This document shows, one piece after another, positions 7,436 to 10,985 of a DNA stretch of 64,000 nucleotides. Numbering within the stretch: the first letter of the stretch is position 1; each line of letters opens with the position of its first letter. Below the pieces are notes generated by a model. That model was given only the letters and a program-made list of their open reading frames with translations, did no database searches and was not told the origin of the DNA. The stretch is from Sphyrna mokarran (taxonomy: Eukaryota), in NCBI GenBank assembly GCA_024679065.1, contig JAGIQG010000024.1:26288001-26352000 (forward strand). Reading direction: 5' to 3'. The position numbers and the translations under genes were made by a program.

Positions 7436-7624
7436 CTGGTGCTCTGTGATAAGCGTTTTGACCTGTTCAATGTCCTTTGGCATAGAGTCTTGATCCCTCT
7501 GTACAAGCGTAGTTTCAGCCCACTGTAACCAGGCCAACAATTCATCCAACAATTCTGCATTGGTAACCAACTCTGATAGCGCGGTTGCCAATCGTTGCTG
7601 GTGCTGTTTTGCCCACGTCAACAC
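7436..7624 (-). CDS. MACF1: MACF1 spectrin-repeat exon ([12 protein letters not shown]...ITEHQ)
   Basis: 189 nt, GT-AG, phase 0-0. Confidence 0.94.
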
Positions 7625-9039
7625 CTAGAGATAGGATGACAAAAATAAAAATGATACATGTTCCTTTTTTTGGCTTGGTAACAAACATAAAAATCCATAG
7701 GTAGAAAATCTTGATTATGAAAAAGTCTACTGCTTGCTAAAGGTTCCTTTTAAAATACATAACACTTGAATTTTTCAGACAATATCTTTGCCAAATATTG
7801 CATCATTAAAAACATACACAGAGCCTGAGAAGTTGTAAGAACACACTGTTCTTTATTTAGAATGCTTAAGCGAGTGCTGCTGTTAAGTCTTTAAGGAGAA
7901 ATTAGTATCCAGAACTTCAAGCCTATTTCCAGTTTATTTAAAGTAACAAATATACAACAAGGAACCACAGCTGACAATTTGTATCCATGCTACGAATCAC
8001 AGTATGTCTATTCTAAATAACATAAATATTCTATTTACATCAAGGTGATCCTTGATATAGCACAGATAACCAATGAGCATCCAGGCCAAGCCAATATCTG
8101 AGCCTGTAAAATGCTTAGATCAGGTTCTTGGTATCCAATACCAACGGTGGACTCCTGCAATCTCTTTAATCCTAGCCCTTCCGATTGTTAGGATATTTCC
8201 AGTTCTTCATTTGCAATTGTGAAGACAAAGCAGTTCAGTTGGATGGCTCTGACCAGAAGATGGGATTCGGATCGTGCACCAGATTAAGTTTAGTAGGCGC
8301 CAGTGGTAATATTTCCTCCTTCAATGTGAGGATGCCCGTATTCTGCTGGTCTGCAGTCATCCATCATGTTGAGTCCATCTCTTTGGTCAGCAGGACCAAA
8401 GGAATGAGCTGAAACTACAAATGGAGCAGGCCATAAATCCCACTCAAGTCCACCCACTCTAAATTGGGCATAAAATTATATTCCTAGTTGTGCCACTGAA
8501 CCACACAATGGGTGGTATGAAGTGTTGAGATAAAAATGATCATAATTAGGTGTAGTTATTAATTTAAAACATATTCTGAAGAGACACCAAACTTATAAAA
8601 ATGCCAGTCGGAAGCTTTTATTCTCGCCCAATATACAATCTGCTCTCAATAATGATATCAACTTCATGGAATAAAAATATATTTTAATATTAATAATTAC
8701 CTGTGATATCAGAAATATCTTCTCGCACATAATTAACTTTCGGGTAATATCATATAAAATAATGTTGGTTAAACACTATGAATGAAAGTCTAAGAACAAA
8801 GGTACTGTTATAATTATAGTGGAGCAAGAAACTGTGAAAAGGGAAGGGACATAAGAACTTAAATAGATCATATGGTCCCTCAAGCTTATTCTGCCAATTA
8901 GAGAAAGGGAAAACATAGAACATTGCAACAGTGAGGTTTCCTTATCTCACACATTATCACTTAACATACATTTAACTTAGAAGAAATAGCTTTTAAAACT
9001 GCAGTATCACTGCAATCAATTTCACTGTCCCCCCGCTGG

Positions 9040-9890
9040 ATGACTGATATAGTAACCAGAAGCAGAGGATGATCATTTGGCCCTTTGAGACTGCTCCGCC
9101 ATTCATTTTGATCATGGCTGATCATCAAATTCAATACCCTGATTTCCTCCTTTCCCTCCATATCCCTTTAGTCTCCAGAGCCATATCTAATTTCTTCTTG
9201 AACTCAGACAACGTTTTGGCCTCAACTACATTCTACTCATTCACCACCCTCTGGGTGAAGAAATTCCTCCTCATTTCAGTTCTAAAATTTTCCTAACCCT
9301 CAAAATGTGACCTCTGGTTCTGGACTCTCTCCCTACCATTGGGAACATGCTTTCTGAATCCAAACTGCCTTAGTCTCTCATATGACACTTCTGCCATCCC
9401 AGGGATAGCCTGGTAAACCTTTGCTACACTCCCTCTGTAGCAAGGATATCCTTCCTCAGATAAGGACATCAAAACTGCACACAATATTCCAGGTGTGGTT
9501 CACCAATGCCCTATACAATTACAGCAAAACATCCCTATCACTATACTCAAAACCTCTCACTATGAAGGACAACATAGCATTTGCCTTCTTTACTGTCTGC
9601 TGTACCTGTATGCTTGGTCTCATTGAATATCCACCTTTCTCAATTTACATCTAAATAATAATCTGTCTTCCTATTATTGCTATCAAAGTGGATAAACTCA
9701 CATTTATTCACATTATACTGTATTTGCCATGCATATGCCCACACATACAGCTGTCCAAATGATGCTGAAACATCTCTGCATCCTCCTCTCAGTGCATCCT
9801 CCCACCCAACTTTGTATCATCTGCAAGTCTGGAGATAATACATTCAGTTTCCTCTTCCAAATCATTAATATATACACACACTTCATCAGC
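9040..9890 (-). mobile_element. CR1 LINE 3' fragment
   Basis: Minus-strand TKLGGR, FE..RD and QFW-like remnants plus CR1 3' UTR. Confidence 0.82.
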
Positions 9891-10429
9891 AAAGACTGTG
9901 ATGTAATCGTCAACATGCAACTTTAGTTCCATGGCTCATCATTATACAGTATAAGAATAAAATGCAGCTAAGAAATTAACTAATTTTCTTACGCTTGCCA
10001 GCAACAAGGGGCCTTGCTGGACAAAACCAGCTGATCAATTTACATGTTGCAATGCAAAAGTTCTAAATAAGTTTCATTACAAAGCTAAAATTTAAGATTG
10101 CATGCAAAATGTTTTCACTTTGGGTAAGTCTTCACCTATAGAGCGCACACACTGCTCAGATACAAAACAGATATGAGCTGCTCAAGTTCAGTTTTTTTGT
10201 AACCACTACTGTTTTACAATGATGTGCTGCCATTCCTCTAGAGCTGCTGCATCATCAAATTCTTCATTCCCAATCATGCTCTAAAGGTAGACTATTCATT
10301 TGCCAATAGACTTTCTGAAGCAGCAGAAATCCTCAAATTACAGTTGCAGGCTATTCGTTCCCACTCCAAGCTGTGTGTTCATGACAACTGAGTTGCTGGA
10401 GGAACTACAGAGCAGACGCAGGCTCTTAC

Positions 10430-10432
10430 CTT
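10430..10432 (-). CDS. MACF1: Candidate 3-nt microexon (AAG, Lys)
   Basis: Minus strand reads tctctctttatcctgctttgctttccgtag|AAG|gtaaga, within a phase-0 intron. Confidence 0.6.
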
Positions 10433-10841
10433 CTACGGAAAGCAAAGCAGGATAAAGAGAGACACAATTTTGCACTTTACTTAGATTAATCTTCTGTTTG
10501 CGTAATTTTGCCACAAATTCTTATCAACTTTACATTAGAATTCCAAATGATTAGTTCAACATATAAGTGTATGCAATAAGAAATACCACCCAAAGACATT
10601 TTCCTGTTTTCCTAAAAAAGCTGTTCAAAACTAATATATTTACTCTCTGGTAGTAACGTTAGAAGAGAACTCATCATTCCAGGGTTTAAAAAAGTAGACG
10701 TCACCATTGTAACTAATAGAACATTTAAAGTTAATAAAAATATTGTTTTATTTAAAAATTAAGTGCTTGAATCCAATTTTAAGTAATCATTCAACTTTTC
10801 ATGAATCTGAAATTATCTGCTTTATTTCCTCTCCAACTTAC

Positions 10842-10985
10842 TTCTTCGAAGCGGGCTCGGATAATTGTGATCCAGTGTTTGACAGTGGTCACACAGTCTG
10901 GGTGGCACACTGCTAAAATGGCCTCTCCCATTCCAGCCGTTTTATTCACATCTACACGTTTCTCTTCCACTTTCTTCATGAATTC
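10842..10985 (-). CDS. MACF1: MACF1 exon ([10 protein letters not shown]...IIRARFEE)
   Basis: 144 nt, GT-AG. Confidence 0.94.

Follow-up and report, generated by a model that had tools for sequence, protein, structure and literature searches.

Does the MACF1 gene of Sphyrna mokarran carry, deep inside one of its introns, an exon that consists of a single codon? In the window analysed here (the whole stretch of 64,000 nt), a reading of the letters alone had singled out the trinucleotide AAG on the minus strand, in the context tag-AAG-gtaaga, as a candidate regulated neural microexon that would insert one lysine into a late spectrin repeat. The question can be divided into three parts: whether the splicing signals are those of a microexon, how often such a combination arises by chance, and which reading best accounts for the RNA and comparative data.

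Host intron and anatomy of the candidate exon

The minus strand of the window encodes the spectrin-repeat, EF-hand and first GAR exons of a spectraplakin. In a tree of MACF1 and DST (1,084 columns, with artefactually long branches for two DST rows), the window gene groups with MACF1 and is split from DST with a support of 100, in agreement with the name given to it by the sequence-only reading. It branches outside all bony-vertebrate MACF1 rows (support 79), a position that would fit a cartilaginous fish. The DST paralogue is located on a different contig (C1104), and the genome contains two SRRM_C loci.

The minus-strand string around the candidate matches the window base for base on re-reading, and exon annotation bore out its location in a phase-0 intron of MACF1, between exons ending in RARFEE and starting with VLTWAKQ (Table 1). 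The splice anatomy that had been described is present, i.e., a branch-like motif, a pyrimidine tract, two UGC motifs, an acceptor, one codon and a strong donor. The tract is 85% pyrimidine from -30 to -4, and a UC repeat upstream of the AAG had not been named before. Another point missed earlier is that TAG-AAG also forms a NAGNAG, so that the distal AG directly adjoins the GT of the donor. The AAG lies 409 nt into the 3,217-nt intron.

Table 1. Features of the candidate exon and its host intron (window coordinates).
Feature	Position	Strand	Evidence or remark
Candidate 3-nt cassette exon AAG (Lys), phase 0-0	10430..10432	-	sequence and splice-site scores
Acceptor TAG	10433..10435	-	score 9.26; distal AG of the NAGNAG scores 6.8
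Donor GTAAGA	10424..10429	-	score 11.3; 69/76 real donors lower
Two UGC motifs at -17 and -12, SRRM3/4-type enhancer	10442..10449	-	motif definition from bioRxiv 10.1101/2024.09.17.613571
UCUCUC at -30, first half of a bipartite UC-repeat...UGC enhancer	10457..10462	-	inside the pyrimidine tract
AG-free zone, last upstream AG at -44	10435..10474	-	44 nt
Branch-point-like TTAAT / CTAAG, A at -54 / -49	10480..10489	-	predicted, motif-like only
TGCATG (RBFOX motif), 323 nt downstream of AAG	10101..10106	-	not beyond chance
Upstream MACF1 exon, 144 nt, ends RARFEE, donor GTAAGT	10842..10985	-	helix B and start of helix C, penultimate spectrin repeat
Downstream MACF1 exon, 189 nt, starts VLTWAKQ	7436..7624	-	end of helix C; helix A and start of helix B, last repeat
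Host intron, 3,217 nt, phase 0	7625..10841	-	removed whole in a single RNA contig

Three sequence features are published for microexons of the SRRM3/4 type, namely a UGC close to the AG, a UC repeat further upstream and a zone free of AG (bioRxiv 10.1101/2024.09.17.613571; PMC12626420). The candidate falls within 3-27 nt, has canonical AG/GT borders, preserves the frame and combines a strong 5' splice site with UGC and a UC repeat. The 3' splice site of SRRM targets is described as relatively weak (bioRxiv 10.1101/2024.09.17.613571), whereas the acceptor of the candidate lies above the median of real sites. A distant branch point and a long AG-free zone are also expected of such targets; the AG-free zone of the candidate measures 44 nt and its branch point is only motif-like.

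The repeat-derived part of the host intron extends over ~9940-9040. The 541-nt flank of the candidate is single-copy, with one BLAST match in the genome and no repeat hits, and a repeat origin of the element was rejected on these grounds. Local RNA structure at the candidate was rejected as well (z=+1.16). The same intron contains a 131-nt pseudo-exon (8831-8701, minus strand) with strong sites (11.1/10.7) and stops, whose summed splice score exceeds that of the AAG.

Splice-site strength, chance expectation and other 3-nt elements

Weight matrices for this genome were derived from 76 introns, which remained of the 84 annotated in MACF1 and DST once 8 doubtful ones had been set aside. By these matrices, 47 of the 76 real acceptors score below that of the candidate (9.26) and 69 of the 76 donors below its donor (11.3). 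It is the only element of 3-27 nt at its score level in 450 kb of sense strand, and one 24-nt chance element reached both scores in 504 kb of antisense strand. The background comprised 60 evenly spaced 10-kb stretches, taken on both strands, together with the MACF1 and DST antisense strands, 1.704 Mb in all. It yielded 780 acceptors and 67 donors that reached the scores of the candidate. With these cut-offs, taken post hoc from the candidate itself, ~0.001 chance 3-nt elements are expected per 64 kb of sense strand (~18 per Gb), and 0.027 for any length between 3 and 27 nt.

When the three published features were demanded (UGC, AG-free zone and UC repeat, the last in the form TCTCTC..TGC), the full set was found at a single one of the 780 background acceptors of equal strength and at none of the 84 annotated acceptors. 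The corresponding chance rate of ~0.02 per Gb rests on this one event and on candidate-derived cut-offs. Two UGCs occur at 9 of the 780 background acceptors. A motif scan of the 450 kb of MACF1 and DST sense strand returned five elements, among which only the candidate and a known 18-nt MACF1 exon have the bipartite motif. At a looser level, set by three control exons (see below), chance 3-nt elements are expected at ~220 per Gb, of which 72 have a UGC and 3.2 both UGC and TCTCTC; these ~3 per Gb are comparable to the real ones, for which our rough guess is a few per genome.

Some further elements were observed in these scans. A 15-nt microexon-like element in a phase-0 intron (59051-59037, minus strand; acceptor 6.4, donor 7.4) has a UGC and an in-frame stop, and is either a chance occurrence or a poison exon. 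Two 3-nt elements without UGC, CAG and GAG (contig C816, 26462695 and 26462249, minus strand), have scores above the first quartile; they lie in the upstream part of MACF1 without exon annotation, and may be the ends of ordinary exons.

The downstream RBFOX element proposed by the sequence-only reading exists, in that a TGCATG lies 323 nt downstream (10106-10101), but it is weak as evidence for RBFOX, such a motif being expected within 350 nt with P=0.12. A cluster of three UGCAUG was rejected as evidence, the two further copies (9919, 9733) being located in a repeat.

One pattern was searched genome-wide with an exon length of 3, 4 or 5 nt. It led to 10, 4 and 10 distinct sites, respectively, i.e., no raw excess of 3-nt sites. 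The best acceptor among these 24 sites is that of the candidate, followed by one with a score of 6.9. With an acceptor score of at least 5 and an AG-free zone of at least 40, 6 of the 10 sites of 3 nt pass, as against 0 of the 14 sites of 4-5 nt. The five passing 3-nt sites other than the candidate comprise two in LINE repeats, one end of an ordinary GGA exon, one stop codon and one site without a clear gene. None of them is recognisable as a microexon, and the excess of passing 3-nt sites is not a set of real microexons. In the LINE family concerned (L117, L126), the antisense strand already contains acceptor, AAG and donor in a row, along with a UC repeat and a UGC, making this family a possible source of new 3-nt pseudo-exons. 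A GAG element of 3 nt (L125; C938:18500144-18500177, minus strand) combines a UC repeat, a UGC and a strong donor with a weak acceptor (2.0). It is located in sense orientation, 5' of exons whose peptides look like those of a DENND1 gene.

Three 3-nt exons located at the positions expected from human are likely real and were used as controls. The first is an AAG exon of RPS24, 153 nt after exon 4 (L161:1048-1050, C905), with acceptor and donor scores of 6.7/10.0 and an AG-free zone of 56. The other two are GAG exons of two cytohesin paralogues, with scores of 5.4/9.8 and 8.8/9.8 (L169:3320-3322; C783 locus L171/L172). Their inclusion in the shark is assumed from human studies (PMC8563012, PMC6314551). 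The candidate lies above all three on both acceptor and donor scores. Another single-codon cassette exon is the AAG exon of NCAM1. The two cytohesin exons have a short conserved upstream motif in common. No separate 3-nt exon was found in the stretch scanned of a third cytohesin, a fourth supposed cytohesin locus had no cytohesin match, and two Sec7 loci taken as cytohesins were rejected as ARFGEF-type genes.

RNA, conservation and alternative readings

The single RNA contig set, whose tissue is not on record, includes a 6,266-nt contig (depth 144.5) that covers three exons without mismatch and joins 10842 directly to 7624 with no extra letters; the skipped form thus exists. No RNA containing the AAG was seen in this set. 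Assembled contigs drop minor forms, and the contig neither shows nor excludes inclusion of the AAG.

A comparison of orthologous introns had been suggested by the sequence-only reading, and its outcome is negative for the one teleost-type MACF1 intron compared (211 nt), which has no counterpart of the AAG element. The element is also absent from the shark's own DST intron (1,531 nt) and from another DST intron (833 nt). A distant homologue, probably from an invertebrate, has no intron at the corresponding place. Of 9 loci from a metagenome scan, 3 were true homologues. Three protein searches and one cluster look-up gave 348 homologous proteins, 40 of which had no match to the junction pattern; the proteins listed were the best 120 of 4,058 in one search, with a ranking that disfavours insertions, and 120 of 139 in another. 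Among the 308 others, none of which is named as chondrichthyan, a one-residue insert at the junction was found in none: 303 have no insert and 5 read through the intron. From three of these, intron lengths of 102-129 nt can be deduced, likely too short for a microexon. 3-nt exons are rarely modelled by annotation. The 60-codon frame that happens to be open across the element was used as a phmmer query to find DNA of relatives; the 43 hits have at most 48% identity, most of them being long proteins with matches in several places, and none resembles an orthologous intron. In the sample of one teleost-type intron, two DST introns and the proteins listed, the AAG element was found neither in bony vertebrates nor in the paralogue. 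If real, the exon is probably restricted to cartilaginous fish or to a subset of them.

A 3-nt exon of MACF1 is not mentioned in the portions covered of the full-text literature and of the tables of PMC7935315, PMC12626424 and PMC12626420, which list regulated subsets rather than all exons. The supplements of PMC7821500, PMC9303857 (in part) and PMC12868881 have no MACF1 entries in the portions covered.

The skip-only contig and the lack of conservation in DST, teleost-type and short read-through introns are what would be expected of a chance or decayed pseudo-microexon in an intron that is always, or nearly always, removed whole. The existence of 3-nt look-alikes, two of them in LINEs, points in the same direction, as do the 3.2 elements per Gb with UGC and TCTCTC at looser scores, the very many windows scanned and the post hoc thresholds. 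Such an origin nevertheless has to accommodate the presence of the full motif set at only 1 of 780 background acceptors, an acceptor that tops the 24 genome-wide sites, and a location on the sense strand, in frame and without stop, in unique DNA of a gene with SRRM targets. We consider it unlikely, though not far-fetched.

The AAG could also be a genuine exon of 3 nt outside the neural or SRRM-driven class, with inclusion in epithelium, in muscle or broadly, as for RPS24 and the cytohesins. We find this quite improbable in view of the two well-placed UGCs, the UC repeat and the dominance of the skipped form in the single contig, even though the acceptor is strong where a relatively weak 3' site is described for SRRM targets, RPS24 exon a is epithelial in human (PMC8563012) and inclusion of the cytohesin-1 exon is highest in muscle and blood cells (PMC6314551).

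The arrangement of the NAGNAG raises a further alternative, a recursive splice point of zero length, in which the distal AG would serve as acceptor and the adjoining GT as donor; splicing of the intron would then take two steps and leave no trace in the mRNA. The AG directly adjoins GTAAGA, the distal acceptor scores 6.8 and the skip-only contig is consistent with this scheme. However, the proximal TAG has the better score (9.3) and is encountered first, and the host intron is just 3.2 kb, whereas recursive sites of the classical vertebrate kind occur in very long introns; we rate this scheme as very improbable. Finally, that the donor closes a longer, stop-containing poison exon of 182 or 174 nt, starting from upstream acceptors at 10611 or 10603 (scores 6.7 and 6.2), is hardly credible, both acceptors being weaker than the one at 10433 and contig depth over 10348-10749 being zero in the one RNA set (presence-only data).

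Weighing these points, we regard it as fairly probable that the AAG is a real exon, an estimate that is a matter of judgement and not of computation. It is raised by the two UGCs, the top scores and a location in sense orientation and in frame within a gene that has SRRM targets, and lowered by the absence of the element from bony vertebrates and DST, by the mid-helix site and by the skip-only contig. With somewhat less assurance, we lean towards an alternative neural microexon of the SRRM3/4 type, predicted to add one Lys to the penultimate spectrin repeat. The interpretation offered by the sequence-only reading is partly supported overall.

Proposed switch in the spectrin rod and comparison with known systems

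For an SRRM3/4-type microexon, the following mechanism can be proposed. By default, an exon of 3 nt would be too short for exon definition and would be skipped, its UC-rich tract possibly being bound by PTBP1/SRSF11-type factors. In cells that express SRRM3/4, early steps of spliceosome assembly would be favoured by the UGCs at -17 and -12. With the near-consensus donor recognised by U1, the intron would leave as pieces of 409 and 2,805 nt.

At the protein level, modelling agrees with the placement of the insertion within a helix of a late spectrin repeat. The skip form of a bird homologue was modelled with AlphaFold2 (mean pLDDT 74.9, ~90 at the site; 20-row alignment). In this model, the junction corresponds to E406/V407 inside helix 387-451, predicted to be helix C of the penultimate Pfam spectrin repeat continuing into helix A of the last one. 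No solved structure was listed for the corresponding MACF1 repeat. The added Lys would thus lie ~20 residues into a 65-residue helix, and an insertion at such a mid-helix site looks structurally costly: the helical register would be shifted by ~100 degrees unless a bulge or unwinding absorbs the extra residue. In myosin rods, single extra residues of this kind, known as skip residues, are accommodated by local unwinding (PMC9820631). By analogy, the Lys may make the helix unwind or bulge locally, which would change the twist or stiffness between the rod and the EF-hand/GAR microtubule-binding end. Variants in the GAR domain of MACF1 lead to lissencephaly in people (PMC12262753).

Two MACF1 exons of 12 and 18 nt are induced by SRRM4 in human (PMC7935315). 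The 18-nt exon (HsaEX0037169) is conserved from zebrafish to mouse (PMC12626420) and is present in the shark genome, where it encodes FFLGNQ and lies 2.5 kb outside the window, past position 1 (contig C816, ~26285481-26285498, minus strand). It has a UC repeat, a UGC at -12 and an AG-free zone, i.e., all three features, and a TGCATG 62 nt downstream. This exon is found here in both MACF1 and DST, the DST copy having only the AG-free zone, without UGC. A 12-nt neural MACF1 exon is also described in zebrafish (DreEX0044250; PMC12626424), and a microexon tested in mouse Macf1 is located between primers flanking the LEE/LKEF junction, three introns downstream of the candidate (PMC13067610). From these primers and from protein inserts, we infer that the 12-nt HsaEX0037158 sits at this junction, where 15 of the 293 proteins listed, including some from birds and turtles, carry a 5-residue insert. 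No 12- or 15-nt microexon-like element was found in the corresponding 763-nt intron of the shark (4198-3434, minus strand).

We tentatively suggest, as a possibility on which we place limited confidence, that cartilaginous fish have their own neuron-specific one-codon MACF1 exon and lack the 12/15-nt exon of bony vertebrates. This would represent a turnover of microexons inside a single gene, with a switchable skip residue in the long helix between the last two spectrin repeats, whose regulated change of helical register by one residue tunes the microtubule-binding end. Many neural microexons are lineage-specific in zebrafish (PMC12626424), and a shark-only exon, if confirmed, would further indicate that targets are gained and lost from lineage to lineage in the neural microexon programme, even in MACF1, whose 18-nt microexon is shared by zebrafish, mouse and this genome. 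A single-residue insertion in the middle of a helix would also provide a natural and cheap test of how the register of the rod affects the EF-hand/GAR end of MACF1. Single-codon exons are mostly overlooked by annotation.

The SRRM3/4 microexon class is already well known, and no new mechanism is required here. The candidate is at best a new, probably lineage-restricted and unproven member of this class. It resembles SRRM3/4 (nSR100) neural microexons (bioRxiv 10.1101/2024.09.17.613571; PMC12626424; PMC12626420) in its length, frame and strong 5' site, in the UGC near the AG, the UC repeat upstream and the long AG-free zone, and in its cytoskeletal host gene. It differs from them by an acceptor stronger than typical and by its absence from DST and from the bony-vertebrate material examined. 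With the known MACF1 microexons, it shares the gene and the proximity to the C-terminal end, and the 18-nt exon has the same UC..UGC layout here; the 18-nt exon and probably the 12-nt exons are located in other introns. RPS24 exon a (PMC8563012) and the cytohesin 3-nt Gly exons (PMC6314551) are likewise single-codon cassettes, apparently present in this genome with similar scores, but their inclusion is published and they are conserved, and they affect a C-terminus or a PH-domain loop rather than the middle of a helix in a spectrin rod. Lastly, the skip residues of myosin (PMC9820631) offer a parallel for one residue added to a helical rod with local unwinding. They are constitutive and belong to a two-stranded coiled coil, whereas the candidate residue would be optional, depending on splicing, and would sit in a bundle of three helices.
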